A DNA stretch of 64,000 nt, from the NCBI GenBank assembly GCA_038060295.1, contig JBBTHR010000006.1:8735-72734 (forward strand), written 5' to 3'. The notes under the pieces were generated by a model, which was not told where the DNA came from, searched no databases, and saw only the letters and a program-made list of their open reading frames with translations. The DNA comes from Candidatus Eiseniibacteriota bacterium. GTDB lineage: Bacteria; Eisenbacteria; RBG-16-71-46; SZUA-252. Made by a program: the position numbers and the translations under genes. This document shows, piece by piece, positions 45,703 to 64,000 of this stretch (positions are counted from its first letter, which is position 1; every line of letters starts with the position of its first letter).

Positions 45703-45711
45703 CCTCTTCCG

Positions 45712-49322: not shown

Positions 49323-49406
49323 GTTCCTATCGCCTGAAGTCGTATAAGGGATTGAGTTTGGCCTTTACGCGCGGAGTGTGTCACAGTGTTTCGAGGAGGT
49401 CAATAT

Positions 49407-51080
49407 ATGGACGTTCGAACCGCACCCGACCTACTAAAATATGCAGTCGAGGTGCGCCGGAAGCCCAACGCCTTCCTGGTGAAACGGGAGGGCCGCTGGG
49501 AGCCCGTGCCCATCGATTCGGTGGCGCAGCATGTATCCGCCATGGCCCGGCAACTCCGCGCACGCGGGCTGGGAAAAGGCGATCGCGTCGCCATTTTTGC
49601 CGAGAGCCGCCTGGAGTGGGGTATGGCCGACATGGCGATCCTCGCAGCCGGCGGAGTGACCGTCCCCATCTACTCCACGCTCCCGGCGAACCAGGTCGCG
49701 CCCCTCCTGGCCGACTCCGGCGCCGTGGCCGCATTCACCTCGAGCGCCGAGCAGCGCGCCACGCTGGAGGAGGCCCGCGCGGCGGGGGCCCCCGCCCTCC
49801 GCTGGATCCACGCGTTCGACGAGGATCCCTGGCCCGCCACGCTCCCCGGCGCCGTCGATCCCGCGGTCCCACTCCAGCCCGACGACCTCGCTACGATCAT
49901 CTACACGTCGGGAACGACGGGATCGCCGAAGGGCGTGATGCTGACGCACGGGAACATCGTCTCCGAGGTCTTGCTGGCCCTGCAGGCCATGCAGCTCCGC
50001 ACCGACGACACGTATCTCTCGTTCCTCCCGCTCAGCCACATCTACGAGCGGACGAACGGGTTCTTCACGATGCTCTACGCCGGCGTGACGATCGCCTACG
50101 CGGAGTCGTTTCAGGCCCTGAGCCGAAATCTGCATGAGGTGCGTCCGACCATCATTCTCTCGGTGCCCCGAATGTACGAGAAGGTTCTGGGGGGCGCCGA
50201 CGAGCGCGTGGCCGGAGCCGGATTCCCCACCGGTCCGCTCTGGCGCTGGGCGCGGCGCGTGGCGATCGAGTGGGCCACCTGCCGCACGGAGAAGCGGGAT
50301 GCCCCGCCTCTCCTGGCGCTTCAGCATTCGCTCGCGGCGAAGATCGTCTATCGGAAGTTGATCGACGGCTTCGGCGGTCACACGCGCCTCCGCGTCTCCG
50401 GTGGCGCGGCGCTCCACCGCGAGGTGGCGCTCTTCTTCTACGGCTGCGGACTCCCCATCTTCGAGGGCTACGGACTCACCGAGACGAGCAGCGGGATCTC
50501 GGTGAACACCTTCGGGAAGCACAAGGTGGGCACCGTGGGCCCCCTGTTCCGAAACATCGAGGTGAAGATCGCGCCCGACGGCGAGATCCTGATCCGCGGG
50601 CCGGTCGTCATGAAGGGCTACTGGCAAAAGCCCGAGGCTACCGCGGAGGTGATCCGGGACGGCTGGTTCCACAGCGGCGACATCGGTGAAATGGATGCGG
50701 ACGGTTTTCTCCGGATCACCGACCGGAAGAAGGACATCCTCGTGACCTCGGGCGGAAAGAAGGTGGCGCCGCAGACGATCGAGGGGGCGCTGAAGTCGTC
50801 GCCGCGGATCGCGGAGGCGCTCGTGGTGGGCGAAGGCCAGAAGTTCGTCGCGGCGCTGATCGTCCCCGCGGAGGGCGCCACGCGCGAACAGATCGCCGAG
50901 GAGGTGGCGCGCGTGAACGAGGCGCTCGCCGATTTCGAGAAGATCAAGAAGTTCGCGCTCATCCCCAACGATCTCACCGTCGAGAGCGGCCTCATGACAC
51001 CGTCGCACAAGTTGAAACGGAAGGCTGTGATCGAGCGTCATCGGGACGTGGTGGCGCGGCTCTTCGGTGAGGGAGCGTAG
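49407..51080 (+). CDS. fadD: Long-chain fatty acid-CoA ligase (AMP-binding)
   Basis: The ATG is preceded by GAGGAGG. AMP motif IIYTSGTTGSPKGVML, YGLTETS and GWFHSGDIG...DRKKD. Confidence 0.93.
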   Translation: MDVRTAPDLLKYAVEVRRKPNAFLVKREGRWEPVPIDSVAQHVSAMARQLRARGLGKGDRVAIFAESRLEWGMADMAILAAGGVTVPIYSTLPANQVAPLLADSGAVAAFTSSAEQRATLEEARAAGAPALRWIHAFDEDPWPATLPGAVDPAVPLQPDDLATIIYTSGTTGSPKGVMLTHGNIVSEVLLALQAMQLRTDDTYLSFLPLSHIYERTNGFFTMLYAGVTIAYAESFQALSRNLHEVRPTIILSVPRMYEKVLGGADERVAGAGFPTGPLWRWARRVAIEWATCRTEKRDAPPLLALQHSLAAKIVYRKLIDGFGGHTRLRVSGGAALHREVALFFYGCGLPIFEGYGLTETSSGISVNTFGKHKVGTVGPLFRNIEVKIAPDGEILIRGPVVMKGYWQKPEATAEVIRDGWFHSGDIGEMDADGFLRITDRKKDILVTSGGKKVAPQTIEGALKSSPRIAEALVVGEGQKFVAALIVPAEGATREQIAEEVARVNEALADFEKIKKFALIPNDLTVESGLMTPSHKLKRKAVIERHRDVVARLFGEGA

Positions 51081-51108
51081 GCTGAAGGTTTCGCGATTCC
51101 CGACCCGG

Positions 51109-52287
51109 ATGGCGAGAGGATTGGCCGCCGCGCTCCTCGCGGGGCTGGCACTCTCGGGCGGCTGCGCCGCCACGAGTAGCACTGGGGCCGCGGCGGGTTC
51201 CTCGCGTGCAGCCGCGGCCGGTTCCTCGCGGGCAGCCGTGGCCGGAACTCCCGAGTCCGCGCCCGCGAATCGTGGTCCGGCGCGGGCGCTTCGCGGCGAC
51301 GATCTGGTTCTCGACCTGAACCCTGCCGCCGAGATCCTCTCGCTCTGGATGGAGCCGAACGACGACGTTCGCTCGCGCGCCCGCGCCATCGCCACCGATC
51401 TTCCCTACCTGACGCTCCGGAACTACTACTCCACGATGATGCGCTGCGTCCCCTCCGACGCCGAGGTGGCGAGAGCCATCGCGGTGCCCGATTCGGGAAT
51501 CTGCGGATTCGGGCTGGAGTCCGCCTATCGCGAGCGCGCGTCGGTGGACAGCCTGGTGCGTGCGCTGGTGCTGCGGGGCGGCGCGATCCGGGCGCGCGTC
51601 GCGGCCGATGTGGCCGCCTACGTGCCCAAGCGGCCCTGGAAGCCAATACGCGTCTTCTTCGTGATCGCGACCCGCTACCTCTTCGACGCCGTGACGCTCG
51701 ACCGGAGTCTGGACGGCGGCGGCCCGACGGTGCTCTTCAACCTGAGCGAGGCGCTCAACTACGGCGGCTCCACCGAGGAGCGCATGGCGATCGTGGAGCG
51801 CGTGCTGGCTCACGAGACGTTTCACGCCGCGCTCCGGCAGCTGGAGTTCGGGGAGCCGGGGTGGCGGCACTATCACGATCCCACGAACACCTTCGACTAC
51901 ATCGCGCGCGTGATGCTGGACGAAGGGGTGGCGCACTACATCGACTGGAAGGAGCGCGCCGGCGCCGACACGTTGTTCGCGGCGAGACTGAGTTCGCGGG
52001 AACGGAAGGCGTTCGACCAACTGGCGCTCGCCTGCAGACGGTTGCGCGATCCGCAGACCGACCCTGAAGCGCGCGAGGAAATCCTGGGGCTGGCCGCCAC
52101 CGGGCCGATCTGGAGCAAGTACGGCGCGATTTCGGGTATGTTCGCGGCGTGGAGAATCGAGAGGGCGTGGGGGCGGGACTCGTTGCGAGCCGCGGTCGTG
52201 GGTGGACCGCGGGAGTTGCGGCGCCTCTACGCGACGGCGGCCGCGGCGGACACGTCGCTGAAGCGCTGGCCGAAGGAGTTGGAGTGA
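51109..52287 (+). CDS. Lipoprotein, putative zinc-dependent peptidase (DUF2268/DUF5700-like)
   Basis: Lipobox LALSGGC. HExxH (LAHETFHA) with a downstream DEGVAHY. A duplicated AAAGSSRAA linker is encoded by a 27-nt tandem repeat near 51185-51245. Confidence 0.65.
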   Translation: MARGLAAALLAGLALSGGCAATSSTGAAAGSSRAAAAGSSRAAVAGTPESAPANRGPARALRGDDLVLDLNPAAEILSLWMEPNDDVRSRARAIATDLPYLTLRNYYSTMMRCVPSDAEVARAIAVPDSGICGFGLESAYRERASVDSLVRALVLRGGAIRARVAADVAAYVPKRPWKPIRVFFVIATRYLFDAVTLDRSLDGGGPTVLFNLSEALNYGGSTEERMAIVERVLAHETFHAALRQLEFGEPGWRHYHDPTNTFDYIARVMLDEGVAHYIDWKERAGADTLFAARLSSRERKAFDQLALACRRLRDPQTDPEAREEILGLAATGPIWSKYGAISGMFAAWRIERAWGRDSLRAAVVGGPRELRRLYATAAAADTSLKRWPKELE

Positions 52288-52291
52288 TCCG

Positions 52292-53119
52292 ATGACGCCC
52301 GAACCGAGCCGCTCCGTCATCGAAAGTCCCGCCGCGATTCGTAAGGAAGGCCCCGCATCCGACGATCTGATTCTGGACGAGTTGGTGGACGCGGCGCGGA
52401 AGTTCCCCGATCGCCAGCTTCTCCAGTTCCGGAGCCGAATCGGCGCGAGCCAGTATCGGCGCCTCTATCGGCTGGTCCGTCGGTACACGCGAGAAGGCGC
52501 CGCGGTGCTCGACTGGGGCTCGGGAAACGGGCACTTCACCTATTTCCTCCAGCGTGCGGCGCGCGCGGCGCACGGTTTCTCGCTCCTGCCGGGCGCGTTC
52601 CGCGCGTGGATTCCCGATCCGGATTACCCGTTCATCCAGGGCAACGAGGCGGAGCCGGTCCGGCTTCCCTACGCCGACGCGACGTTCGATGCGGTCGTGT
52701 CGGTTGGAGTGCTGGAGCATGTACGGGAGACGGGCGGGGACGAGTCGCGGAGTCTGGGCGAGATCGTGCGCGTGTTGAAGCCGGGGGGAGTTTTCATCTG
52801 TTACCACTTTCCGAATCAGCACAGTCTCATCGATCGGCTGGCGCGGAGGTTTCCCAGCATGCATCGTCATGAGTTTCGTTACACGTCGGGCGATATAAGG
52901 GCGCTGGTCGCGGGCGCCGGGATGCGGCTGGAGGCCATGGGGCGATATGGGAGTCTGCCCCGGAATTCCGCCGGGGCGCTGCCGGATGCGCTGGCGCGGT
53001 CAGGGGCGGTGGCGGCGGTTTGGGACGCGGCGGACGCCGCGCTTGGGACCGTGTTGGCTCGCTGGTGCCAGAACTACTGTTTCGTGGCTCGGAAGGGTGA
53101 GGCGCTTGGATTGCGCTGA
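52292..53119 (+). CDS. Class I SAM-dependent methyltransferase
   Basis: VLDWGSGNGHFT motif I, FDAVVSVGVLEHV and LKPGGVFI. Confidence 0.8.
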   Translation: MTPEPSRSVIESPAAIRKEGPASDDLILDELVDAARKFPDRQLLQFRSRIGASQYRRLYRLVRRYTREGAAVLDWGSGNGHFTYFLQRAARAAHGFSLLPGAFRAWIPDPDYPFIQGNEAEPVRLPYADATFDAVVSVGVLEHVRETGGDESRSLGEIVRVLKPGGVFICYHFPNQHSLIDRLARRFPSMHRHEFRYTSGDIRALVAGAGMRLEAMGRYGSLPRNSAGALPDALARSGAVAAVWDAADAALGTVLARWCQNYCFVARKGEALGLR

Positions 53120-53177
53120 GCCAGGCGACGAGTGCTGTCGTCTGGAGTGGAAAGCCGACATTGGGACGGTTCTCGTG

Positions 53178-54011
53178 CTATTTCTTGTCTGTGTTGATTG
53201 GAACGAAAAGTATGACCCAGTCAGCCACAGGACCGATTGGGGCCTGAGCGGGCGAGAAGTTCCACAAATCAAGAGCAGCGCGTGCGGCTTTGGCGGCTGC
53301 TGAAAGTGGCGAGCCAGGGGCGCGACCCAATACTCGCGCCTCCAAGAGCCGGCCCTCCCTGGATATCACCGCAAGGAATCGAACGCTGTCTTCGCTCCCC
53401 GAAACGTTGCACGAGCGGCAAACCCCCGGGGGGCCCCCGAGCGCCCGCGCGCGTACCGACAAGTGTTGAGTGGTGACATATTCCGGCCCATCGATCGGGA
53501 TGAGTGCGAACCCGCTGTATCGGAACCGAATTCCCTTTCGAATTGTCTCTTCCCGAACGGGTTCGAATCTGCCGTTCGCCGTCTCTGCACTCGGCGGCCC
53601 CACACTCATCACGTAGTCGCCCTCATCGATGTGGTATCCATCCGACGAGACGTGTCGTACGTTCAGCCGGACCTGGCCTAAGGATGGCGCGCCCGGAACG
53701 AAACGAAGTTCCCATTCACGATCCGCAGGGCCACGCCATGCGGCAGAGGGGTGAATCAGCCTTACCAAGTCTCCCGCCACTAGTTTCGCACCTTCCGGAA
53801 GTTGGATGCTGACCGTGGCCGTCGAGTTCCTCTCGTAGGCTCCGTCGACACTCACGAGCAGGGAAACAGGTTCACCTGTGATCCACGACCTCTGAACATA
53901 GGAAACCCACAGCGGTGAGTCGTGCGGAACAACGGACCCGCTGCTCGCATGCGCAGTGCCGTGAGCGATGAGCATTACCGCCAGAATTCTGATGAAGCAG
54001 ATCCTCAACAT
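53178..54011 (-). CDS. Secreted protein with a TonB-C-terminal-like domain
   Basis: Signal peptide MLRICFIRILAVMLIAHGTAHA. The last roughly 80 aa (VRFLAVISREGRLLEARVLG...AAKAARAALDLWNFSPAQ..PIGPVADWVILFVPI) resemble the TonB_C fold pattern. It lies 11 nt downstream of the 1158-aa gene. Confidence 0.6.
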   Translation of the reverse strand: MLRICFIRILAVMLIAHGTAHASSGSVVPHDSPLWVSYVQRSWITGEPVSLLVSVDGAYERNSTATVSIQLPEGAKLVAGDLVRLIHPSAAWRGPADREWELRFVPGAPSLGQVRLNVRHVSSDGYHIDEGDYVMSVGPPSAETANGRFEPVREETIRKGIRFRYSGFALIPIDGPEYVTTQHLSVRARALGGPPGVCRSCNVSGSEDSVRFLAVISREGRLLEARVLGRAPGSPLSAAAKAARAALDLWNFSPAQAPIGPVADWVILFVPINTDKK

Positions 54012-54022
54012 ATACCCTCCGC

Positions 54023-57000
54023 CTACTGGAGCTTGACCAGCCTCACTGTCCGCTTCATTCCGGGACCTTCCAATCGACAGAAGTAAACTCCTGCCGACGC
54101 CTTTCTGCCATGACGGTCATTGCCATCCCAGCGAACCTCGTGCAATCCGGGACCCACTAGCCCTCGCGAAAGCGTCGTGACGAGCCGTCCCTGGACATCG
54201 TACAGTTTGACTTGGATGGGGGCCACTTTCGCGACCTCGGGGATGGTGATTGCAATGACTGAATTTCGGCGAAACGGATTTGGTTTCGCGTGCAGATTCC
54301 ACGTCGGTGGTGGGGCCTGATCATAATCACTTATTCCTGTAACCCCGCCTTGTATTCCATGCTCCCAGAATAAATCCCAAGTGCGCTTGTATCGGTCAGT
54401 CCACATGTTTGGTGTGTATGTGGCCGCCTGATAAACCGAACGAAAGTCGAATACAGTCCTAATCACCGTTGCCGCCGGGACATGCGACGGATTGCTGTCC
54501 CGAAGAACGCTCCAGAGGGTCTCGATTCCGTCTGCGAGCGAGTCACCGGACGCATCCCCATTCTGATTGTCCGCTTCCGAGTCCATGACATCATAGAGCA
54601 AACTGGCTATTGACACCTCGAATAGGGGACCCGAAGCGTTGAGCGTATCGACTTGGCCATGCGGCGAAAGGGTCACCAGGCCACGCTCGAGGTCCAGGAT
54701 GGCTTCGCCTTGAATGCCCAATCCGTCGACGCCCCTATTTCGTATGGTCTGGCTCGGTGGTCCCCATTGGCGGAACAGGCCGAAGAAATGCCCCCAGCCC
54801 TCGCCCCAGGCAAGCTCGAGCGATGGGCTGGGGCCGTTTATCGTATGATCGCCTCCTGGAGACATGTCGAAGCCCATTCTGGAAGACACGTGATGGCCAT
54901 ACTCATGCAGCACCCACGAGTCGTCGGCCTCGTCCGGAGTGTAGCCCCACGATGGAGTGCTCGAGCCATTGATGTGAATGGTACTTGTGTTGACCGCGTA
55001 GCTCGTGACTCTTGAATACCCAGGCGACCACTGTACGGTGAGGGGCCCGAGCCCGATACTTGTGGGGCATCGGTCACGAACCCAGGCCCACCCACGCTCG
55101 GCGATCGTCTTCATCATGTGCAGAGCCCACCGATCGCCGTAGCCGGTAGGCTTGAGAAGCCCAACGTCAAGTGTGTCTCCAGCGAAGTCTTCCGTCACGC
55201 CCGACTCGAATGCCCACGGCGTGCCGTCGTCCTTCACCATGGTAACAAGCCAGGAGCCAGGATAGGAAAGGTTCCAGCAGTTCTCGTTACTTCTGTAGTT
55301 CACACGCACTTTGAGATCTAGAAACCCATTGTCATCGTCGGTGTCTACGTTGGCAATTGGGCCGATGATGAAACGCCCAGTATCCCAACAGCATACCGCT
55401 GCCGCGCCAAGCGTATCGATTCCATTGGGATCCCCGGTGTCGATGACCATCACATCGTTGCACGGGGTCGTCGTCGTCCCCAAGAGAGAATCGTCATAGA
55501 AGAAGGTCCCCGTGACGTAAATCAATCTTGAGGCCCATACCGTCTGCACCGGCCCGTGCGAGTTGTTACCCTCGGTGCTGCCCTCATCGACCGCGTTCGT
55601 CGCGTCCGCCAGTAGGTACATGTTCCACGTCTCGGCTTTGGTTCCCGTCGCGTAGAAGTGGAGAACGGTCGATGCGCCGGCTCCAAGCGTCCCCACGGTC
55701 ACGGATTGTTCTCCTCGGGTGCCGTATGCTGGGGGGCTTCCACGATTCTTGTACCAGTCGAGGGCGCAACTCCCACCCGTTGCAGCGGTTCCCTGGTTAC
55801 GCACGGTCACGGCGATGTCCACCGTCTGCCCCATCGTAAACGTGTACGCAACGGCACTCCCCGTTTCCAACAACGCGGGCGCCATCGCGGGAGCCGCAGG
55901 CGGCGTTTGCGCGGTCACCGTCACGCTCTGCACGATGAGGTCGGGCGCGGGGGGATTCGACCACGTGAACGCGGCTTGATACGTGTTGTCCCCCTCGTTC
56001 GACTCCGTGATGGAGCCGGTGGGATCGATCACCATCTTGAGCGTGTGCGTCCCGGCTGTGTTGACCACGTAGCCCCAATCGGTGCGCGTGTACGTGGTGT
56101 TCGCCGAAAGCGAGAAAACGTAGTCCGATCCGATCCACCCGTTGTCGAGGTAGTAGTCGACGTAGAATCCGCCGGCGGACCCCGTGTCGGCATTGCGGAT
56201 GGCCCAGTCGATGTTGGTGAACTGACCCGTGAGTAGGTTCGCGCCGGTCGTCGTGGTGCCAAAGCTCATCGAAGGGACGATCGGCCCGCTCCAGCCCGTG
56301 GGAGTGGTCGCGAGGAGATTCGGCGAGTTGGCGGTGACTTGAATGTCGTCCAAGAGAATTCCGCCCGCGGCGGTAATCGAGTTGTCGCTCGCGAACACGA
56401 AACGAAGATAGAGGTTGTCATACGCGTGGCCGGAATTGTCGAAGATCCATTGCCTCTGAACCCAGCCCCCCGACGAGCCGGTCATTTCGATGAGCTGCGT
56501 CAGGGGATTGGGCGCCCCGCCCGCCTGGAACGAAAGGAAGTCGTAGCCCGACTCCATGTTGCAATTGACCCAGAAGCTGACCGTGAAGGACGAGTAGGAG
56601 CCCATGTAGATCGACGAGACGTTCTCCAGATCGGCCGTCTGGTTGTTGTCGTAGGCGGCGCATCCCACATCTCCGTGCCAGGCTGCCGATACGATCCACG
56701 ACCCGCCGTGCGCGGCCCCACATATTACGTCGCCCCAATAGTCGAGACCGTTGTACGAGTTGTAGTCTGCCGCGCTCCAGGAGGAACCCGGCACGAACTC
56801 GGTTTCGAACCCTTCGGAGAAAACGACCGGTCCCGCAACCGCCTCCCCCGCGGCAGGGGCGGCGCTCGCCCTCCTTCCCCCGCTCGATTGGCCGGATCCC
56901 GGTGGCGCCTTCGGGGGCGCGGAACCTGTCGGCTGTCTGATGCTCTCGGGCGGCCGGTACTCCCAGCAGGAAATACCGCGCTCTCCCAATTCATAGAAAT

Positions 57001-57499
57001 GGCGAATGGTGCTTCGGACAACCACGGTGCACGGTGGTGCGCAGGCAATCGTGTCGCCCAGAGCGAGAAGTCTGCCGAGAGATGCGGAGTCCTCAACCGC
57101 GATCGCCATGGTGATCGGCAGGTGTCCCTTCAGGCTGATCTTCCTCTCGCGCAGGGCCTGCGCGTCTTGCTCGAGCTGAGAGGCGCCCTTGGCGGCTAGG
57201 GGCCGCCAGACACGCGACCCAACGTCCTTCATCTCCTCGCCACGGGGCCCCATTCGGACGATGGGACCTTGGCCAGTGTTGAGGCCGTCTCCGAAAATGG
57301 CCGCGCTGTCGGGGCCGACCCCGTCGGAGGGAGCCGAGGTTTCGAAATGCCGCTCGGAGTGGGTTGTATCGGGGGGTGTCGGTGACTCGGCGGGGTTCGC
57401 GCCGGTACCGGCGGGTGCCCCCGCGAGCACGATCAAGACGGTGACGGCGGACAGAATGACCCGGTTCGGATTCGTCGCGGCGTGAGAGACGTGTGGCAT
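54023..57499 (-). CDS. 1158-aa secreted multidomain protein: choice-of-anchor/MAM-like region, two CARDB-like domains, an HExxH domain and a FlgD-Ig/T9SS-like C-terminus
   Basis: Signal-anchor VILSAVTVLIVLAGAPAG. FSEGFETEFVPGSSWSAADYNSYNGLDYWG. CARDB-like GGFYVDYYLDN...ITESNEGDNTY and VTVRNQGTAATGG...VDEGSTEGNNSHG. WVLHEYGHHV. C-terminus KPNPFRRNSVIAITIP...VKLYDVQGRLVTTL...VRWDGNDRHGRKASAGVYFCRL. Confidence 0.8.
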   Translation of the reverse strand: MPHVSHAATNPNRVILSAVTVLIVLAGAPAGTGANPAESPTPPDTTHSERHFETSAPSDGVGPDSAAIFGDGLNTGQGPIVRMGPRGEEMKDVGSRVWRPLAAKGASQLEQDAQALRERKISLKGHLPITMAIAVEDSASLGRLLALGDTIACAPPCTVVVRSTIRHFYELGERGISCWEYRPPESIRQPTGSAPPKAPPGSGQSSGGRRASAAPAAGEAVAGPVVFSEGFETEFVPGSSWSAADYNSYNGLDYWGDVICGAAHGGSWIVSAAWHGDVGCAAYDNNQTADLENVSSIYMGSYSSFTVSFWVNCNMESGYDFLSFQAGGAPNPLTQLIEMTGSSGGWVQRQWIFDNSGHAYDNLYLRFVFASDNSITAAGGILLDDIQVTANSPNLLATTPTGWSGPIVPSMSFGTTTTGANLLTGQFTNIDWAIRNADTGSAGGFYVDYYLDNGWIGSDYVFSLSANTTYTRTDWGYVVNTAGTHTLKMVIDPTGSITESNEGDNTYQAAFTWSNPPAPDLIVQSVTVTAQTPPAAPAMAPALLETGSAVAYTFTMGQTVDIAVTVRNQGTAATGGSCALDWYKNRGSPPAYGTRGEQSVTVGTLGAGASTVLHFYATGTKAETWNMYLLADATNAVDEGSTEGNNSHGPVQTVWASRLIYVTGTFFYDDSLLGTTTTPCNDVMVIDTGDPNGIDTLGAAAVCCWDTGRFIIGPIANVDTDDDNGFLDLKVRVNYRSNENCWNLSYPGSWLVTMVKDDGTPWAFESGVTEDFAGDTLDVGLLKPTGYGDRWALHMMKTIAERGWAWVRDRCPTSIGLGPLTVQWSPGYSRVTSYAVNTSTIHINGSSTPSWGYTPDEADDSWVLHEYGHHVSSRMGFDMSPGGDHTINGPSPSLELAWGEGWGHFFGLFRQWGPPSQTIRNRGVDGLGIQGEAILDLERGLVTLSPHGQVDTLNASGPLFEVSIASLLYDVMDSEADNQNGDASGDSLADGIETLWSVLRDSNPSHVPAATVIRTVFDFRSVYQAATYTPNMWTDRYKRTWDLFWEHGIQGGVTGISDYDQAPPPTWNLHAKPNPFRRNSVIAITIPEVAKVAPIQVKLYDVQGRLVTTLSRGLVGPGLHEVRWDGNDRHGRKASAGVYFCRLEGPGMKRTVRLVKLQ

Positions 57500-57587
57500 G
57501 CACCTCCTCCTTCGTCTGATGCCCTAGGAGCCGAAGTCTTGATCGGCAAGGCGGAACAATAGAGCCGAAGCCTCGCTCCGCCCTAGG

Positions 57588-57602
57588 GCAAGTGCGATGC
57601 CA
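57588..57602 (-). promoter_or_regulatory. Sigma-54 promoter TGGCATCGCACTTGC (minus strand)
   Basis: GG-N10-GC spacing is correct and 9 of 10 core positions of TGGCAC-N5-TTGC match. It lies about 90 nt upstream of the ATG at 57499. Confidence 0.65.
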
Positions 57603-57692
57603 ACCGCAGGTGACGGTCCGGGGGATGGATGTGTTGATCTATCAGAAGATAGGACGGGAGCTTGGGGTGCGAACGTGCGGGGGGAGTGTCAG

Positions 57693-57720
57693 CGCGTGAA
57701 CGCCGTCAGAAGTTGACGCG
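57693..57720. promoter_or_regulatory. Inverted repeat CGCGTGAAC-N10-GTTGACGCG (candidate enhancer/UAS)
   Basis: 9-bp arms with one mismatch, 91-118 bp upstream of the -24 element. The GGCGAATGGG direct repeats at 57728 and 57781 are nearby. Confidence 0.4.
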
Positions 57721-57820
57721 CCTGGCAGGCGAATGGGCTGGATGGACGATAGGCGCAGACGGCTGGACTTCCGACGCGGGGGCGAATGGGAGAGCCGGAC
57801 AGGTTCCTGCGCCTTGATGC

Positions 57821-60106
57821 CTAAGCGTCTTCCGTCGAATACTCCTCCGGCCTGATCCCGAGCCGCTCCATCTTGTACAGTAGCGTGGTCCGGTTCATCC
57901 CCTCCAGGCTCCGGGCGGCGTCCGTCTTGTTGCCGCGGTGGGCGCGGAGGGCTTCGAGAATCCAGGCACGTTCGTCGCGGACCTGGGCGGCCCGCACTCT
58001 GTCGCGGCGAAGGGTCGCCGGCAACTTCACGCGTAGCTCGGGGAGCAGGGCGTCGAGGCCGATCACGGAACCGCTCTCGCTGACCGCCACCAGCCGGGCG
58101 ACCTCATTCCGGAGTTCTCGCACGTTCCCCGGCCACGCGTACGCGCGGAGGAGCGGCTCGACGTCGGCGGCCATGGAGAGACGCTTTCCTGCGGCGGCGC
58201 ACACCTGCGCGAGGAAGTAGCGGAAGAGCGGCAGAATGTCCTCTTCCCTCTCCGCGAGCGCCGGCACAGCCACTCTAACCCCGGCCAGCCGGTAATAGAG
58301 GTCGCGCCGGAACGTCCCTCGCTCCACCATCCCACCAAGGTCCGCATTCGTGGCCGCGACGACGCGAACATCGATCGTGTGCACCTCGTCGGTGCCAACG
58401 CGCCTCAATTCCCCGGTCTCGAGAATACGCAGGAGAGTTGCCTGGGCCGTGGGCGAAAGTTCTCCCACCTCATCAAGGAGGAGGGTCCCTCCATCGGCGG
58501 CCGCGAAGAGCCCGTCGCGCGCGGCAACGGCTCCGGTGAAGGCGCCGCGCTCGTGCCCGAAGAGTTCACTGTCGAGAATCCCGGGCGATAGCGCGGCGCA
58601 ATTCACCGGCACAAGCCGCCGCTTGCGCCGGTCGCTCATCAGGTGGAGCGCCTGCGCGAGAAGTTCCTTCCCCGTCCCGCTGGGACCGGAGATGAGCACG
58701 GGGATCTTCGACGGCGCGACGCTCTGAAGCGTGGCCACCGCCGCGCTGATCGCGGGGCTCGTCGTGACGATTCCAAAGCGGAGGGCTCCGCGATCCAGGC
58801 CTTCGATGCCTTCCAGCACCGCGAGGTCCGGCCGCGTCGACTCCTCGCGATCCGGCGATTCCTCGAATCCCAGGAGGCGGTCGATAGCGACGGCCTCGTG
58901 CTCCAGCCCGATCCGCTCAAAATTGGCGCGAGCCTCCCATAGCTGAAGGCGACCGATCATTTGCTCGTCCCGCTGCTGGCTCTCCAGCCGCGTCGAACCG
59001 GCCCACGCCAGGGTCCGCGCGAGTTCGTAGGGAATCTCGTAGGCGCGGCCGAGGGCGATGCCGTGGTCGGCGAGGCGGTAGGCCTTGGTCGCGTTGCCGG
59101 CCGCTCGATGCGCCATGGCGAGGACGCGCTGCGTTGCGCACTCCTCGTAGCGGTCGCCGGTCTCGAGCGCGACCTTGAGGCCGTGCTCGCAGGCGAGGAT
59201 GGCAGCGTTGGGATCGCCGAGATGGACGAGGCACTCGCCGATGCGGTGGCCGAGTTCGGGGATGATGTCCCCGTTAGGTGCATGGGCCGCCGCAATGCGC
59301 TCCGCCGCCCGGTAGGAGTCGAGGGCGTCAGTCCACAACCCCGAGTTGACGAAGCAATCGCCAAGATACTCGAGGCAGATGGCCTCTTCGCGCTTGTGCA
59401 CGCCGAATCGGATCTCGGTGAGCAAGCGGTGCAGAAGCTCCCTTGCCTCTTGGTGGCGGCCTAGAAGTCGGTGGCACTTCGCCTGAACCATCTCAGCGAG
59501 GATTCTCCAGAGGGGAGTCGGGCATCCTTGGAGCGACGCGACGGCCTTCGAGACCTCGATGGCGGCTTCCTCGATGCCACCGGACTTCAGGAGCACGATC
59601 GCGAGGTTTGTCCGGTTCCGAGCGGCGGCCACGGGCTCACCCAGCTCCAAGGAGGCTTCGATGGCACGGCGGCTCTCGTGAGTAGCCTGTTTCCACATCC
59701 CGAGGCCTTTGAACAGAACCGCTAGGCGGCGCTGGTGCGCTAGCGCGGCGACAGGGTCCCTCAGGATCCACTTTGCGATGTGATGGGCGGCGCGAAGGTG
59801 CGTTTCCGCTCTGGATATCTGCCCCAGGCGCCTAAAGCTCCTCGCGAGGATGGCGTGGATCTCAGATAGAAGTGCCTGGCTTGAAGTTGATCCAATCGTT
59901 TCCACCCCTGGTTGGCCCTCGCGGACAACCTCGGTCCATCTGCCGAGTTGCTCGAGAGCGTTAAGCCGTGCGATCAGGATTCGCGCGGAGTCGGAGTCCT
60001 CGGTGATGGGTGGGAGGGATGCGGTCAGCAGCAAGAGCTCCTCGAGCAGATTGCGCGAGCGGAGGTCTTCGAGTTTCGCAAGGAGGGTTGCGGCGTCACC
60101 CTTCAT
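57821..60106 (-). CDS. Sigma-54-dependent transcriptional activator (bEBP) with a roughly 440-aa N-terminal TPR-like region
   Basis: AAA+ sigma-54 interaction domain (VLISGPSGTGKELLAQALH, ELFGHERGAFTGA, LLLDEVGEL, RVVAATN, RRDLYYRL). C-terminal Fis-type HTH (NKTDAARSLEGMNRTTLLYKMERLGI). The ATG at 60106 overlaps the upstream small ORF stop as ATGA. The track start is the GTG at 60112. Confidence 0.92.
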   Translation of the reverse strand: MKGDAATLLAKLEDLRSRNLLEELLLLTASLPPITEDSDSARILIARLNALEQLGRWTEVVREGQPGVETIGSTSSQALLSEIHAILARSFRRLGQISRAETHLRAAHHIAKWILRDPVAALAHQRRLAVLFKGLGMWKQATHESRRAIEASLELGEPVAAARNRTNLAIVLLKSGGIEEAAIEVSKAVASLQGCPTPLWRILAEMVQAKCHRLLGRHQEARELLHRLLTEIRFGVHKREEAICLEYLGDCFVNSGLWTDALDSYRAAERIAAAHAPNGDIIPELGHRIGECLVHLGDPNAAILACEHGLKVALETGDRYEECATQRVLAMAHRAAGNATKAYRLADHGIALGRAYEIPYELARTLAWAGSTRLESQQRDEQMIGRLQLWEARANFERIGLEHEAVAIDRLLGFEESPDREESTRPDLAVLEGIEGLDRGALRFGIVTTSPAISAAVATLQSVAPSKIPVLISGPSGTGKELLAQALHLMSDRRKRRLVPVNCAALSPGILDSELFGHERGAFTGAVAARDGLFAAADGGTLLLDEVGELSPTAQATLLRILETGELRRVGTDEVHTIDVRVVAATNADLGGMVERGTFRRDLYYRLAGVRVAVPALAEREEDILPLFRYFLAQVCAAAGKRLSMAADVEPLLRAYAWPGNVRELRNEVARLVAVSESGSVIGLDALLPELRVKLPATLRRDRVRAAQVRDERAWILEALRAHRGNKTDAARSLEGMNRTTLLYKMERLGIRPEEYSTEDA

Positions 60107-60429
60107 CGCCACAGCGCCAGGAAAGCTCTCAACGACACGATTCTGAAATACCGGTAGGCGATATCGGTTCGGGTACCAGCGGACTGGTACGACGAGGTTA
60201 GGGCAGCCGATGAGTCGAGTGATGTCGATTTCGCCGTACCGGCCTTCACGGGCCCATGCGCGGGGCCATAGTCGTCATCGGGGTCTCCTGAAAGGGGATC
60301 TGTGCTAACGGGAAATGGCTTCGCCACGGCGTGATCGGGCACGATCGAGGTGGTGGCCACCGCGACCAATAGTAGGAGCAACATCCCACACCACCATACC
60401 GCGCGTCGAATTCGTGCAAATTGGTTCAT
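60103..60429 (-). CDS. Small exported protein (108 aa), translationally coupled to the bEBP
   Basis: The ATG is preceded by TAAGGA (5-nt spacing). Hydrophobic N-terminus AVWWCGMLLLLLVAVATTSIV. Its stop overlaps the bEBP ATG. Confidence 0.55.
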   Translation of the reverse strand: MNQFARIRRAVWWCGMLLLLLVAVATTSIVPDHAVAKPFPVSTDPLSGDPDDDYGPAHGPVKAGTAKSTSLDSSAALTSSYQSAGTRTDIAYRYFRIVSLRAFLALWR

Positions 60430-60441
60430 GGCATCCTTACC

Positions 60442-60723
60442 TCACGAGGGAAACCGGCTGAGCGTGCGACGGGACTCACAGTCGCACGCTGGGAAACTCT
60501 CACCGGCTCCTGAAACGACAAGAGAAAGCGGAAGAGCTGGCCCTGGGACGGCCTGCGCTGTGCCAGTCCACGTGACCACGGCTACGCTCGAGACTCCGGC
60601 CACCACCAGTAAGACGAGCAATGGGAGCAACCGGATCGGAGCGATTCGACTTCTCGTCGAGCCCACCAACCCGCCGATCACGAGCAGCCACAAGTCGCTT
60701 GGGAACGAGACGTGTTTCTTCAT
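60442..60723 (-). CDS. Small membrane protein (93 aa, two hydrophobic segments)
   Basis: The internal ATG at 60723 (MKKHVSFPSDLWLLVIGGLVG...LLPLLVLLVVAGVSSVAVV) has GAGG upstream. It ends 12 nt before the next ORF. Confidence 0.45.
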   Translation of the reverse strand: MKKHVSFPSDLWLLVIGGLVGSTRSRIAPIRLLPLLVLLVVAGVSSVAVVTWTGTAQAVPGPALPLSLVVSGAGESFPACDCESRRTLSRFPS

Positions 60724-60740
60724 GGCGCTACTGCCTCGAT

Positions 60741-60983
60741 TCATGAGCCGACGATCCGATCCGAGGGGGGGTGAAGGTCGGATAGGCGACAATATCTTGA
60801 TGGGGACTGTTTCTCTAGATCGACATCGGAGGACGTAATTCGGCGGAACTGGTGGGGACGGACTGTGAGAAGCCGTAGGATCTCAAGCACGCGCGCCCCC
60901 TGCTGCCGTGTCGGCCTAGCGTTCAGAGGTGGGACCGAAGCGCAGGCTACCACCAAGAGCGAACTCAAGTCAAGCTGTTTCAT
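60741..60983 (-). CDS. Possible small lipoprotein-like ORF (80 aa)
   Basis: MKQLDLSSLLVVACAS has a lipobox-like VVAC. No clear RBS. It ends 17 nt before the next ORF. Confidence 0.3.
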   Translation of the reverse strand: MKQLDLSSLLVVACASVPPLNARPTRQQGARVLEILRLLTVRPHQFRRITSSDVDLEKQSPSRYCRLSDLHPPSDRIVGS

Positions 60984-61024
60984 TTCAATGGTTTATGGAA
61001 ACGAATCTTGACATCGGCCGAGGT

Positions 61025-61065
61025 GCTCGACCTGGGCGAATCTCCGCGTTCGTGGCTCGACCTGG
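61025..61065. repeat. Direct repeat GCTCGACCTGG x2 with 30-bp spacing, plus a partial third copy at 61107-61114
   Basis: Read directly in the 374-bp divergent intergenic region, 220-260 bp upstream of the sigma-54 promoter at 61287. Confidence 0.6.
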
Positions 61066-61286
61066 CCAAGCCAGTTAAGTGTAATTAATAAAGCTATTTA
61101 GGGCAACTCGACCTCATCCGAGTGGGAACGGCCACCCATGCGGTGCCCGAGCCAGCCGTGGCTCTCGCGCAACCATGTCGAGTCCTCGTCCAGCCCGAAA
61201 CGATCCGATCTTCTAACCCGATTTGCTATGGCTTGTTACGGGCTTCGTATGACCGCCTTGATTTCGGCAAGCCGGGAGCCGAGCCA

Positions 61287-61301
61287 TGGCACCGCGGTTG
61301 C
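61287..61301 (+). promoter_or_regulatory. Sigma-54 promoter TGGCACCGCGGTTGC
   Basis: Exact match to TGGCAC-N5-TTGC, 57 nt upstream of the ATG at 61358. Confidence 0.72.
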
Positions 61302-61357
61302 GTTAGCAGTCCCACAGGAACGGGACGCCCAGAACGGGCAGCAACCACGGAGGCGAT

Positions 61358-61558
61358 ATGGAAAAGTCGAGGGGAACCAAGAAGACGCTGAAGACGGTGG
61401 CGACGATGGCGGCACTGGTCGCGGCACTGGCGACGACGGGATGCACCGGCAGCTCGCTGATGGGGCCGGAGTCGGGGACGCAGGCGCAGGGGCAGTCGGT
61501 GACGGCGAACAACGCTGGTAACGAGCTGAATCCCGCGGGCAATGGCCTGAAGCCGTAA
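61358..61558 (+). CDS. 66-aa lipoprotein-like small secreted peptide
   Basis: RBS ACGGAGG. MEKSRGTKKTLKTVATMAALVAALATTGC (signal plus Cys), followed by a low-complexity G/N/Q/S-rich mature part of about 37 aa. Confidence 0.6.
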   Translation: MEKSRGTKKTLKTVATMAALVAALATTGCTGSSLMGPESGTQAQGQSVTANNAGNELNPAGNGLKP

Positions 61559-61571
61559 GGGAGTTGGGAGA

Positions 61572-64000
61572 CTAGCGACTCACATCAAGGACACGAAGGA
61601 GGGCCTGAGCATGAGGCGTCCCAAGATAGAGACGACGGCGGCCCTCGCTGAGTTCGCCAGCGACCTCTCGCAGCACGCGGACCGAAAGTCCGAATCTCTT
61701 CTGTGCGACCTCGCGCTCACCAGAGCGAAGAGCGCCGTGGCCGATTCCGGCGCTGATTCTCCAAGCGTATTCGCGAGCGCCTCCCGACTCCGCAAGCGTC
61801 AACCCCTCCTGGACAAGGTGCAACAAGTCGCCATCGTGGATCCCGCGGTCGGCCAGGATCTCCGACAGGACGAGCGCGCCTCGCAGGGCAACAACCAAAG
61901 CGCCGTCCTCAACGGCCTTAGTCGTCGTAAGACGGACTCTGTCCCAACTCGCATTGGGATCCTTTCGACGCCAGGCGAGGCGGTCCAGTTCGATCTGGAC
62001 CCCCGGTAAATCCTCCCAGTCCTTCGTCTCTAGAAGCACAGCCTCTGCCTTTTCGAGGAGCAACTGTGCCCGTCCGAAGTTACCCGCTCGGACTTCAATT
62101 CGTGCTTCCAGCCAGTCAAGACGCGGCTGCACATCGTCAAAACCACGGCCTCCGAGTTCCGACGACACCCTGCGGACGGCCGACAGAGCCGCGGCGTCAT
62201 CACCGAGCTGGTGTAGTGCAAATGCCTCCATTTCGAGAGCCTTGGCCATGTCATGCGGGTTCGGCAGGGCGGCGGCGGCATTCCACGCATCACGCGCTCG
62301 GTCGATGGCGGACTCGTATTTCGCCAAGAGGCTGAAATTGATAGATGCACCCAGAGAGGCGGCAAGAAACTCGAAAGTGCTTCCCGTACGTCGCGCCCAC
62401 ATTGCCGACAGGCCATGATGCTCGACGGCATCGCTGAACCGCCCCATTCCGTAGTACAACCCGGCACGATTCGACAGAATTCTCGCCTTGAAGCTATCGA
62501 ATCCTCCCAACTCGGCATCCTTCCAAGCCTCCCCGAGTAATGAGAGCGTACGTTCGAAGTCACCGAGGTAGTAGACCGCGGTGGCCAAGGCATTGCGGAC
62601 TCGCATGCGCCAGTACGGGCCGCAGGGCTCGCGCAGCCCATCCTCGAGGAGATCTCGCGCCTCTTCCCTTCGTCCTGTCTCGATGAGCGCTGCCCCGAGC
62701 TGATAGAGGAGTCCTGCCCGGGGATCCGCCAGGTCTTGGCGGCCAGTCGTATCTCCGAGGATTGACCTGAGGCGAAAGATGCATCGATCGCGCAGCTGCC
62801 CATCGCCGTGGCGCCATTCAATCTCCGCGAGGTCCGCGTGGGCATTCAGGACTGTCGCCGTGAAGTCCCTCTCACCCACACCTTTGATCACTGCCTCGAA
62901 GCAGGCCCGGGCCCCCTCAAGCTCGCCTAGAGCGAGTTGGATGCGGCCAAGAGCCTTGGAGTGCCCTTGCATGGCAGATGGCTCAACGCGACTGTCGCTC
63001 CAGACTTCCGAGTCGAGAAGCAAGGCCTTCGCGTCTCGATCTCGGCCAAGTCGATGTAGCGCCTCGGCACGGGCGAGGCTCGCCCCCCTCGCATCCGCGG
63101 TGACACTACTCGCTCGTGCCCAAGACTCCGCGCGAGACGCTCTCCGTTCCGCAAGTCTGAAGTCATGGCGCTCTTGGGCAAGCCTGACCGCCACCATTTG
63201 CTGGGCATGGTCCCTGGATGCTTGCGCACGCACATCGGCCAGGCTCTCCTCGCCGAGCATTTCGCCGATTCGATCCGCGACGAGCTGGGCGGCGAGGCGC
63301 TGCTCATTGGGAGTCGCGAGCGCGAGAACGTCGTCGACAACGGCAACCGACGAGAGCCTCCAGGCGCCCCGTCGTTCCAGGGCCCACCCGCGGATAGCAA
63401 GGGCATCCAACTTCGTGTGAACCGAGGTCTCGCCCTGGTCAAGAAGCTTGGCGATCGCATGTGTCGGGAGACCCGCTACTACCACTGCAAGAAAGAGAAG
63501 CGACGCGTGCTGATCAGCGACCAGAGTCGGCCATTGTGCTGCGAGGTTGTCCCTCGAACTCGCGAAGTCGAGCGATCGAATCTGTTCGCGCTCCAGGAAG
63601 CGCCACTCACCAGCCCGCCGAACCAGGATTCCCCTCTGCACGAGCCTGAGAAGGCTGCCTACCACTTGATTCGGTTGACCTGAGGTTTGCTCCGCAAACA
63701 TCGCCTGGAGTTCGCTCTCGATTTGTGCCGCTCCCAGGAGCCCACGGATCGCCAGCGACACCTCCTTGCCGTCGAAGGGCTCGAGTGCGATTGTCCGTTC
63801 AAATACCTCGATGGGCTGAATCGTCGCGGTGCCCGACTGCACAATCAGGATGGGAAATCTAATCTGCCGTTCGATCGCGACGGCTGCAACGTAGCGTGCA
63901 ATTCTGCGCGCGAGATTCCTTGCATCTGCCTGCTGCTCGTCGGGGGGATCCGACGTCACGAGAATCGGGCCCGACCGTGATGCAGTGAGGAGATGTTCCG
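61572..64000 (-). CDS. STAND-like/TPR regulatory protein, 5'-truncated by the window edge
   Basis: The reading frame stays open upstream of the track start (GTG at 63959) to base 64000 (..EHLLTASRSGPILVTSDPP..). The region FPILIVQSG...IALEPFDGKEV resembles the end of an AAA_16/NB-ARC-type NTPase module. Winged-helix-like segments and about 450 aa of TPR-like repeats follow. Confidence 0.7.
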   Translation of the reverse strand, partial: EHLLTASRSGPILVTSDPPDEQQADARNLARRIARYVAAVAIERQIRFPILIVQSGTATIQPIEVFERTIALEPFDGKEVSLAIRGLLGAAQIESELQAMFAEQTSGQPNQVVGSLLRLVQRGILVRRAGEWRFLEREQIRSLDFASSRDNLAAQWPTLVADQHASLLFLAVVVAGLPTHAIAKLLDQGETSVHTKLDALAIRGWALERRGAWRLSSVAVVDDVLALATPNEQRLAAQLVADRIGEMLGEESLADVRAQASRDHAQQMVAVRLAQERHDFRLAERRASRAESWARASSVTADARGASLARAEALHRLGRDRDAKALLLDSEVWSDSRVEPSAMQGHSKALGRIQLALGELEGARACFEAVIKGVGERDFTATVLNAHADLAEIEWRHGDGQLRDRCIFRLRSILGDTTGRQDLADPRAGLLYQLGAALIETGRREEARDLLEDGLREPCGPYWRMRVRNALATAVYYLGDFERTLSLLGEAWKDAELGGFDSFKARILSNRAGLYYGMGRFSDAVEHHGLSAMWARRTGSTFEFLAASLGASINFSLLAKYESAIDRARDAWNAAAALPNPHDMAKALEMEAFALHQLGDDAAALSAVRRVSSELGGRGFDDVQPRLDWLEARIEVRAGNFGRAQLLLEKAEAVLLETKDWEDLPGVQIELDRLAWRRKDPNASWDRVRLTTTKAVEDGALVVALRGALVLSEILADRGIHDGDLLHLVQEGLTLAESGGAREYAWRISAGIGHGALRSGEREVAQKRFGLSVRVLREVAGELSEGRRRLYLGTPHAQALLRVLDVSR

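Follow-up and report, generated by a model that had tools for sequence, protein, structure and literature searches.

Peptide signaling of the RRNPP type, in which cytoplasmic receptors with tetratricopeptide repeats (TPR) read short unmodified peptides, has been described for Bacillota (PMC10075063) and their phages in the literature searched, and in some Phr propeptides the pheromone is tandemly duplicated (PMC11343458). Neither an RRNPP system linked to sigma-54 nor a sigma-54-dependent bacterial enhancer-binding protein (bEBP) that carries TPRs and is paired with a secreted peptide was found in the literature. Here, we describe a locus that may unite these elements. It is located in a stretch of 64,000 nucleotides (nt) from contig JBBTHR010000006.1 of a Candidatus Eiseniibacteriota bacterium. 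This whole stretch is referred to as the window, its positions 1-53119 as the core and its positions 53120-64000 as the region under study. We propose that the region harbors an autoinduced, pherotype-like peptide signaling locus with added protease cargo, a reading to which we assign a probability of roughly 0.5. Two layers would then have to be distinguished, i.e. an ancestral chromosomal signaling locus of four genes (57.8 to ~65 kb) and, directly downstream of the activator gene, a lineage-specific cargo (53.1-57.8 kb) that consists of the promoter P1, a zinc-metalloprotease-like protein with CARDB domains and its TonB_C-like partner.

The candidate signaling module and its variable segments

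The following features make up the proposed signaling layer, with protein lengths given in amino acids (aa). STAND denotes signal transduction ATPases with numerous domains.

57821..60112, (-): bEBP, sigma-54 enhancer-binding protein of 763 aa (an ATG at 60106 would give 761 aa)
60103..60429, (-): small secreted protein of 108 aa, immediately 5' of the bEBP gene
61030..61085, (+): far-upstream element of promoter P2, related to CTGCGCCAAAnCTCC...TGGYT-N6-ARCCA, with the dyad CTGGCCAAGCCAG at 61062-61074
61287..61301, (+): promoter P2, sigma-54 -24/-12 element (TGGCACCGCGGTTGC), a perfect match 57 nt upstream of the propeptide ATG
61309..61326, (+): leader hairpin GUCCC-ACAGGAAC-GGGAC with the loop motif CAGGAAUG(A)
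61358..61558, (+): lipoprotein-type propeptide of 66 aa with signal peptide, lipobox LATTGC and conserved linker
61572..64000, continuing to ~65069 beyond the window, (-): STAND Ser/Thr kinase, convergent with the propeptide gene, with the C-terminal 809 of its 1165 aa in the window

For comparison, 52 loci with the bEBP family were fetched, which dereplicate to 38. Among the latter, the small protein is encoded in 32, the peptide gene and the kinase in 18 each and all three in 14, numbers that are limited by contig extent. The genes for bEBP, small protein, propeptide and kinase form a conserved four-gene module, the members of which remain together in three different arrangements of gene order.

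Homologues of the propeptide occur in 23 metagenome loci and in L068-L070, and all of them have the signal peptide, the lipobox and the linker in common (e.g. MERTRNLKSGLKAA...LSTGCSNNALMNPQ). Each ends in two to three tandem copies of a locus-specific unit of 6-8 residues (GNDLKP, GNELNP, GSNLNP, GQPSNP, SHDPNP, GHPTNP, GTNLNP or GNNVNP), and in every case a proline is followed by the stop codon. The C-terminus of the window propeptide consists of the tandem units AGNELNP and AGNGLKP (61514-61555), again with the stop right after Pro. When the last two copies are compared across loci, 63 of 138 codon pairs differ synonymously, while 18 alter the residue, many of these at the first (linker) position. 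Since the copies have drifted yet remained identical in amino acids, the short unit is taken as the functional product. The tandem units are thus selected as peptides and old enough to have drifted.

The kinase gene, which is complete in L001 (2431-5928), encodes a Pkinase domain (E = 6e-35), an AAA_16 NTPase (34.0 bits, cut-off 32.6) and TPRs. This combination of effector, NTPase and repeat sensor is that of a STAND protein, and the kinase is predicted to be cytoplasmic. The sequence-only reading that preceded this work had correctly recognized a window-truncated STAND-like/TPR gene on the (-) strand; that the kinase belongs to the conserved unit had escaped it, as had the tandem hypervariable repeats. 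Kinase homologues in convergent orientation next to the peptide gene were counted in 23 metagenome loci; on 21 of these contigs that gene is itself included, and dereplication leaves 18 loci. L069 and L070 show the same arrangement. Between loci, the kinase domain is 55-85% identical and the sensor part only 21-48%, unless the peptides are similar. Among kinases with differing peptides, the catalytic domains are 81-85% and the sensor parts 31-47% identical, while the sensor parts reach 73-87% identity with nearly the same peptides. As a separate observation, L068 (5735-10000) and L069 (4676-8940) encode an identical bEBP (P0015). In the 691-kb NCBI contig, a TPR fragment of 430 aa is all that is left of the kinase, accompanied by extra DNA, and the kinase in the Logan contig is intact (1169 aa), which may reflect natural kinase loss or an assembly difference. 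Membership in a defense system was considered as well and rejected, as PADLOC gave domain-level matches only, to generic kinase and AAA+ models.

The bEBP consists of an N-terminal TPR superhelix of ~445 aa, an AAA+ domain with GAFTGA loop and an HTH_8 domain. Matches to Sigma54_activat (PF00158, E = 8.4e-62, residues 448-614) and HTH_8 (PF02954, E = 4.6e-8, residues 714-750) are accompanied by matches to AAA_lid_14 and TPR_12, and the GAFTGA loop can be read in the translation (HERGAFTGAVAARDG). The protein thereby displays the AAA+ domain of the NtrC family and a Fis-type helix-turn-helix (HTH), and the TPR-fused bEBP anticipated on the (-) strand is indeed present. With the TPR part as query, more than 110 proteins of ~760 aa were retrieved at 45-50% identity. 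Because the family amounts to only about three clusters in a library clustered at 50% identity, it is lineage-restricted. The TPR domain was modeled confidently (predicted local distance difference test, pLDDT, of 88). In a Foldseek search with this model, MalT domain III and Rap-pheromone complexes gave the best template modeling (TM) scores and the TPRs of LGN/Pins the best E-values. The TM-scores against Rap (0.54-0.73) were no better than those against MalT or LGN. The predicted shape is thus compatible with a ligand-binding superhelix without discriminating between these candidates.

The 108-aa protein encoded directly upstream is predicted to be exported owing to a signal peptide with AxA site. 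Next come the conserved motif GDPDxxExPxPGPxK, a Ser/Thr-rich stretch that varies and a hydrophobic C-terminal tail rich in Trp and Arg. The stop codon of its gene overlaps the ATG of the bEBP gene (ATGA), through which both are translationally coupled. Homologues are located directly upstream of the bEBP gene in 43 loci, which correspond to the 32 of 38 dereplicated ones. Indels of 71 nt and 66 nt in or near this gene distinguish the otherwise near-identical loci L044 (~989-994) from L045/L046 and L045 from L060, and the L044 indel truncates the small protein. Up to three small open reading frames (ORFs) coupled to the bEBP had been suggested previously. Of these, only 60103-60429 stands; the other two are unsupported as genes:

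60442-60792, (-): orphan ORF
60741-60983, (-): orphan ORF

Neither has a protein or DNA homologue in phmmer, tblastx and blastn searches that included all fetched loci, and their frame-specific GC signal is weak. Within 60442-60983, one gene caller predicted a 93-aa product in a Logan contig.

Variation among closely related loci follows sharp boundaries. L041 and L046 share 99-100% identity across most of ~3.1 kb, but only ~40% across nt ~100-1150, a stretch that covers the mature small protein and the first ~290 aa of the bEBP TPR. A second break starts exactly at the first peptide repeat and runs into the 3' end of the kinase gene. The 5' break recurs in L022/L029, L034/L036 and L059/L036, the exchanged cassette covering the mature small protein and the first ~200-290 aa of the TPR in these pairs. 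In the trio L040/L041/L046, the identities of the small-protein C-terminus and of TPR residues 1-200 rise together (0.50/0.80 vs 0.27/0.34). Across 23 loci, mean identity amounts to 0.17 for the variable tail of the small protein, 0.34 for the hypervariable TPR residues 1-200, 0.60 for TPR residues 201-445 and 0.70 for the AAA-HTH part. Owing to the convergent orientation of their genes, the peptide repeats and the C-terminal sensor of the kinase are physical neighbors on the DNA; likewise, the tail of the 108-aa protein and the N-terminal bEBP TPRs are encoded side by side. The mosaic pattern is best read, on these alignments, as signal and receptor surface being exchanged together. The agr and com loci exhibit the same pattern of joint signal/receptor exchange.

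As sigma-54 promoters, we regard elements of the type TGGCAC-N5-TTGC with GG and GC ten bases apart that are positioned upstream of a gene and kept in orthologues. P2 matches perfectly and P1, the promoter of the protease cassette, with one mismatch, and both have equivalents in orthologous loci. Over the whole window, the motif count is not above chance (four found vs 2.7 expected), so the significance of P1 and P2 derives from their conservation in orthologous loci. Equivalents of P2, either perfect or with one to two mismatches, precede the peptide gene in 18 of 18 loci inspected with upstream sequence (e.g. TGGCACCCACGTTGC and TGGCACCTCAGTTGC). The earlier assignment of a sigma-54 promoter to the 66-aa lipoprotein-like peptide on the (+) strand is thus confirmed in 18 loci, as is its association with the TPR-bEBP, both occurring together with the promoter in 18 dereplicated loci. 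In 14 other peptide promoters, a block located ~200-240 nt before the -24 element aligns with the far-upstream element of P2, and the dyads found across loci are TGGYT-N6-ARCCA and GGCCAA-N3-TTGGCC. When folded individually, 14 leaders (from the window and 13 loci) all gave a hairpin around the CAGGAAUG(A) loop, the stems varying while the loop stays (e.g. GGCUCG/CGAGCC vs GUCCC/GGGAC). RNAalifold returned no consensus structure from a MAFFT alignment of the peptide leaders, and an Rfam scan of 52-64 kb gave no match. Conservation of the predicted hairpin across loci is therefore proposed tentatively.

Two further observations concern the surroundings of the propeptide and sigma-54 elements elsewhere in the window. 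A DUF5700 "putative zinc peptidase" (51067-52287, (+)) appears to have its own lipoprotein signal. Its gene is nearby in the window and adjoins the propeptide promoter upstream in the class-B arrangement of relatives (loci L016, L026, L031, L034, L069 and L070), and the protein is a candidate for the processing protease of the propeptide. A third, perfect sigma-54 -24/-12 element (TGGCACGCGGATTGC; 14667-14681, (+)) is positioned 59 nt upstream of a 149-aa ORF (14740-15189, (+)) with signal peptide, good Shine-Dalgarno sequence and Lys/His-rich tail, for which the gene table of the matching contig lists no Pfam annotation.

Chromosomal setting, composition and the protease cassette

The region under study clearly differs in composition from the core. 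GC content is 0.681 in the core (1-kb windows, sd 0.026) and 0.623 in the region, with a minimum of 0.565, and the mean number of G+C per 60-nt line drops from 40.9 to 37.4 (Mann-Whitney p = 6e-24). Tetranucleotide L1 distances to the core are 0.137 +/- 0.022 for 5-kb windows of the core itself (maximum 0.18) and 0.23-0.35 for every 5-kb window from 52.5 kb to ~70 kb, i.e. above all core windows. Past the window end, the atypical composition persists for at least another 7.5 kb. The change in base composition after position 53119 noted beforehand is thus real, although the hand counts behind it (about 30, 29, 26 and 45 for lines 54301, 55261, 60961 and 13201) were accurate for the first and last line only, the actual values being 30, 26, 25 and 45. 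The decrease mainly affects third codon positions, with a GC content (GC3) of 0.64-0.73 vs 0.78-0.87 in core genes. Values are 0.65 for the gene of the 277-aa cassette protein, 0.73 for the protease, 0.64 for the small secreted protein and 0.67 for the kinase. The bEBP gene (0.80) is close to the core genes, in line with the mosaic character that had been ascribed to the region. No tRNA target and no direct, inverted or att-like repeats were found at the region boundaries. The window stems from a Hainich groundwater population of Candidatus Eisenbacteria, and an 82.6-kb ENA contig from there is 99.98% identical to window positions 44021-64000, the differences over these 20 kb being a 2-nt indel (AA, 44689-44690) and substitutions at 45405 and 46852. 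Within the core, positions 23001-27000 also show somewhat lower GC (0.62-0.65) with a max-phase GC3 of 0.69-0.72.

Atypical composition relative to the flanks would be expected of a genomic island, as would absence from the same site in relatives. The latter applies to the protease/277-aa pair only. In at least 11 dereplicated loci, the four-gene module is flanked by orthologues of the ECH/3HCDH, thiolase, AMP-binding and DUF5700 genes of the window (46-78% amino-acid identity), and two chromosomal contigs (691 kb and 3.1 Mb) show the same beta-oxidation/DUF5700 flanking. These relatives also show the GC3 dip, as exemplified by L069 (flanks 0.78-0.92, peptide gene 0.71, kinase 0.64, small protein 0.62, bEBP 0.77). 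Because the module is syntenic at the same chromosomal site in distant Eisenbacteria with the same GC3 dip, it was apparently not imported recently, and part of the low GC can be read as the codon usage of the module itself. The four genes hence represent an ancient resident, fast-evolving regulatory locus of uncultured Eisenbacteria. In view of the synteny of bEBP, small protein, peptide and kinase, the single, horizontally acquired, self-contained island of the sequence-only reading is not supported. Its alternative description as fast-evolving holds, and its sigma-54 circuit with two promoters looks real and is conserved in orthologues. Regarding the question of whether the gene set is present in relatives and travels together, this is the case for the four module genes, which occupy the syntenic site, and not for the protease/277-aa pair, which is absent there. 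Taken together, the low GC appears to combine relaxed or atypical codon usage of a fast-evolving module, foreign cargo and mobile DNA further right. A low-GC patch thus need not mean import; in this case it would mark a resident, fast-evolving locus in which only the protease cassette looks acquired.

The proposed cargo comprises the following features:

53178..54011, (-): 277-aa exported protein with C-terminal TonB_C-like domain, downstream partner of the protease
54023..57499, (-): 1158-aa secreted protein with N-terminal signal/anchor, two CARDB domains, HEYGH...EGW and a FlgD_ig tail of type A for the type IX secretion system (T9SS)
57588..57602, (-): promoter P1, sigma-54 -24/-12 element (TGGCATCGCACTTGC), 89 nt upstream of the protease ATG, one mismatch
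57680..57718, (-): upstream block of P1, CGTCAACTTCTGACGGCGTTCACGCGCTGACACTCCCC, with two GTCA-N5-TGAC-type dyads, candidate activator-binding site

The 1158-aa protein carries CARDB (E = 3.6e-20) and FlgD_ig (E = 1.4e-7; PF13860, 31.8 bits, cut-off 27) domains as well as a T9SS type-A sorting domain (TIGR04183, 27.4 bits, cut-off 23). The residues H865, E866, H869, E900 and G901 are invariant among six homologues and constitute a zinc-metalloprotease motif of gluzincin-like appearance. No peptidase family cut-off is reached, the match to M36 being weak (PF02128, 14.7 bits, cut-off 23.3; NF038113, 21 bits, cut-off 885), and the N-terminal 420 aa gave no match. A search of 5.8 billion proteins yielded only five homologues, at 35-54% identity, and an AlphaFold model based on six sequences was unusable (pLDDT 34). 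The CARDB match, the HEYGH motif and P1 nonetheless uphold the previous description of a 1158-aa CARDB/HExxH protein with sigma-54 promoter on the (-) strand. For the 277-aa protein, the similarity to TonB is weak (Pfam TonB_C, 12.5 bits, cut-off 24.6; PDB profile search, E = 0.011, TonB in 8 of 12 matches). Its gene follows the protease gene after a gap of 8-15 nt, as do the genes of ~270-aa homologues in L009, L010, L012 and L013. On the P0004 contig, a 282-aa gene occupies the position following the protease. The pair constitutes a conserved two-gene unit that is found in a handful of contigs only. It is absent from the syntenic module on the 691-kb and 3.1-Mb contigs of relatives and looks like a rare, lineage-specific cargo that was added to the module in this genome. 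In another metagenome-assembled Eisenbacteria genome (L013, 7335-17037), the cassette is preceded by a 325-aa FlgD_ig protein. There, it is bordered by a tyrosine integrase and a HerA-like ATPase on one side and by a Replic_Relax gene on the other; a tRNA-Ser follows after another 5 kb, and the whole looks like a mobile-element context.

P1 is kept upstream of two orthologues, in L011 (TGGCATCACGTATGC) also at 89 nt from the ATG and in L012 as TGGCGCGCTCTATGC. Its upstream block (CGTCAACTTCTGACG...) is almost identical in L011 at only 54% identity of the proteases, and TGAC/GTCA dyads are present in L012, too. These dyads are unlike the two types found in the peptide promoters, and a search for shared k-mers and dyads in the regions upstream of P1 and P2 revealed no convincing common upstream activating sequence (UAS). 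The protease is probably controlled by this bEBP or a related one; for this particular bEBP, it is solely the position directly downstream of the activator gene that makes control plausible.

On the other side of the module, to the right of the kinase gene, DNA of atypical composition continues:

L005 14155-20201, ~1.5-7.5 kb past the window end: run from glycosyltransferase to gene for a type IV secretion coupling-protein-like (T4CP-like) protein
L005 17144-20201, 3-7 kb beyond the window: serine recombinase and T4CP-like gene

This run encodes a PMT_2/TPR glycosyltransferase, a 198-aa ORF, a large serine recombinase of 572 aa and the T4CP-like protein, which has homologues across phyla that are often fused to excisionase HTH domains. 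This DNA is probably an integrated mobile element. Apart from it, only the protease/277-aa cassette looks lineage-specific or mobile.

A second pair of small protein and TPR-bEBP (P0032) is encoded outside the window on a Hainich contig of 117,211 bases (L015 9678-12298); the protease is also recorded on a contig of 117,211 bases. P0032 is 60% identical to the window bEBP, and neither a kinase nor a peptide gene is nearby. At L015 8346, the opposite strand bears a sigma-54-like site that heads an operon of unannotated proteins. In relatives, the activator gene is followed downstream by genes for DUF1579, a 511-aa protein, an M1 peptidase, an SSF transporter and a TonB-dependent receptor, DUF1579 being directly adjacent to the module bEBP. 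In the organism studied here, a DUF1579 homologue is found 4.5 kb downstream of P0032. This arrangement points to a splitting or duplication of the ancestral locus, with mobile DNA inserted in between.

Proposed mechanism and alternative explanations

In the proposed mechanism, the propeptide would be exported and cut, probably after each proline, to yield identical short peptides that may be sensed by the STAND/TPR sensor of the kinase. The activator, in turn, could recognize the variable C-terminal portion of the small secreted protein through its own N-terminal TPRs. Once activated, this bEBP would open P2 and give rise to more propeptide, i.e. autoinduction, and the adjoining determinants of ligand and receptor may recombine jointly, leading to pherotype-like alleles. 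That the products are exported, processed after Pro, taken up again and bound, and that the circuit depends on sigma-54, we infer from the sequence of the locus. A more far-reaching proposal, which we put forward tentatively and at clearly less than even odds, is that of an undescribed peptide-pheromone class in Eisenbacteria with two exported signals, each with its own cytoplasmic TPR receptor, sigma-54 autoinduction and pherotypes that arise by cassette exchange. The proposed signal/receptor pairs would be tandem heptapeptides from the lipoprotein-type propeptide with the STAND Ser/Thr kinase, and the aromatic tail of the ~100-aa protein with the sigma-54 activator.

Several points weigh against peptide signaling as outlined here. 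Both receptors are predicted to be cytoplasmic, and no importer is encoded in the locus. The two units of the window propeptide itself differ at two residues. The joint exchange of peptide and kinase sensor was deduced from a single pair (L041/L046) and ~60-110 nt of L041 kinase sequence, and the global correlation between divergence of small protein and TPR is weak (Spearman 0.19), because most pairs are saturated. The fold matches of the TPR domain are generic, with eukaryotic LGN giving the top E-values. A search of all sequence examined (window and loci) for an rpoN box found none, and P1 and P2 have no upstream motif in common, so that control of the protease by this particular bEBP is no more than plausible. 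Finally, the window bEBP and P0032 are both 57-60% identical to the proteins of relatives, so that either could be the original partner of peptide and kinase, and the P0032 pair is located beside genes that flank the module in relatives.

Alternatively, the exported proteins could act as reporters or anti-activators in a system that senses the state of the envelope or of secretion, in which they would be monitored by the TPR activator and the kinase following the logic of Psp or NlpE/Cpx. Hypervariability would then stem from surface exposure to phages or predators. This would agree with two small proteins bearing export signals, cytoplasmic receptors without importer in the locus and, as output in this genome, a secreted protease with a T9SS-type tail, and translational coupling of activator and small protein would suit a stoichiometric partnership. 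Yet it leaves unexplained why segments of cytoplasmic receptors co-vary and are co-swapped with variable segments of exported proteins, why two to three protein-identical units drift synonymously and why every precursor ends exactly after the proline of a unit. We consider such sensing unlikely, though less so than a locus for kin discrimination or antagonism of the polymorphic toxin or bacteriocin type. In that case, sigma-54 would merely serve expression, the repeat units or the Trp/Arg tail would be antimicrobial or adhesive peptides and the variable TPR an immunity or chaperone surface. While the extreme allelic diversity with sharp recombination boundaries, the cationic/aromatic C-terminal tail of the small protein and the domain-level matches of the STAND NTPase-kinase to kinase models of defense collections would fit, domain scans of the window proteins detected no toxin, immunity or export-machinery domains. 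In addition, the variable partners are sensor domains of an activator or kinase, which is a signaling architecture, and the 6-8-aa units (e.g. GNDLKP) are polar and not bacteriocin-like. Peptide signaling accounts better than either alternative for the co-swapped cytoplasmic sensor segments and for repeats that drift only synonymously.

As improbable as kin discrimination is the initial model, in which all of 53.1-64 kb forms one horizontally acquired island with a single bEBP driving both the protease and a secreted peptide. It can draw on a compositional shift that is real, on the serine recombinase and T4CP-like gene 3-7 kb beyond the window, on the position of both promoters on either side of the bEBP operon and on an 86%-identical bEBP orthologue that retains the layout of bEBP, ~324-nt gap and downstream gene. 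However, it is largely refuted by the synteny of the four module genes with the same core neighbors and the same GC3 dip in distant relatives. Membership of the kinase in the unit, the lack of a UAS common to P1 and P2 and the absence of att-like repeats or a tRNA at the boundaries also oppose it.

If peptide signaling by this locus holds true, it would extend quorum sensing by cytoplasmic peptide receptors beyond Bacillota, the phylum to which the literature searched confines it, and be the first case known to us with a sigma-54 output. An uncultured phylum of soil and groundwater would then have evolved the same logic independently, wired to sigma-54 and a STAND kinase and diversified into agr-like pherotypes. 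The hypothesis is amenable to testing, as the predicted ligands are short and synthesizable (AGNELNP, AGNGLKP, AGNDLKP) and the predicted output is a compact, movable promoter.

Comparison with known systems

The cargo protein resembles T9SS-sorted surface metalloproteases of the FCB group (Fibrobacterota, Chlorobiota and Bacteroidota) in its type-A sorting domain above the TIGR04183 cut-off, its CARDB repeats and its HExxH...E site. It differs from them by scores below all peptidase family cut-offs, by its unmatched N-terminal 420 aa and by an apparently obligatory pairing with a TonB_C-like protein under a predicted sigma-54 promoter. The activator shares the GAFTGA AAA+ domain, the AAA lid and the Fis-type HTH with bEBPs of the NtrC family, and the promoters show GG-N10-GC with far-upstream dyads. 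Instead of a REC, GAF, PAS or V4R domain, it carries a TPR superhelix of ~445 aa. Similarly, the kinase follows the order of effector, AAA_16 NTPase and TPR sensor known from STAND NTPases such as MalT and PknK-type proteins, and MalT domain III is by TM-score the closest match to the TPR model of the bEBP. In this locus, however, a Ser/Thr kinase serves as effector, and its gene keeps a fixed place beside a peptide gene and a bEBP gene.

In terms of allelic exchange, the agrBDC locus of Staphylococcus and comCD of Streptococcus offer the nearest parallel, since near-identical loci differ by a sharply bounded, diverged cassette of the variable part of the signal and the adjacent sensor. No AgrB, thiolactone or histidine kinase is involved in the present case, and each locus has two cassettes.

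The logic of the locus as a whole resembles that of the RRNPP(A) systems (Rap-Phr, NprR-NprX, PlcR-PapR, Rgg-SHP and AimR-AimP), which pair the small gene of an exported propeptide with the adjacent gene of a cytoplasmic receptor folded as a TPR-type superhelix. Judged by sequence features, such an adjacent propeptide gene is even present twice, in the form of the 108-aa gene and the 66-aa lipobox gene. A PlcR-regulated protease processes PapR, which parallels the co-located secreted metalloprotease described here. As further likenesses, the propeptide gene is apparently controlled by the receptor itself (autoinduction), peptide and receptor diversify jointly, and one propeptide carries tandem copies of the mature unit, which is also true of some Phr (PMC11343458). 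The differences are nevertheless substantial. The output is a sigma-54 AAA+ protein with HTH_8 rather than an XRE-type HTH or a phosphatase, a STAND Ser/Thr kinase would act as second receptor, two different small proteins are predicted to be exported, one of them with a lipoprotein-type signal, and the host belongs to a candidate phylum of the FCB group, not to Bacillota. Searches for homology to the receptors Rap, NprR, PlcR, Rgg, PrgX and AimR gave no Pfam or NCBIfam match but generic TPR families. The locus thus falls outside the RRNPPA family as defined by homology, while its gene content and patterns of variation appear to match the logic of that family.

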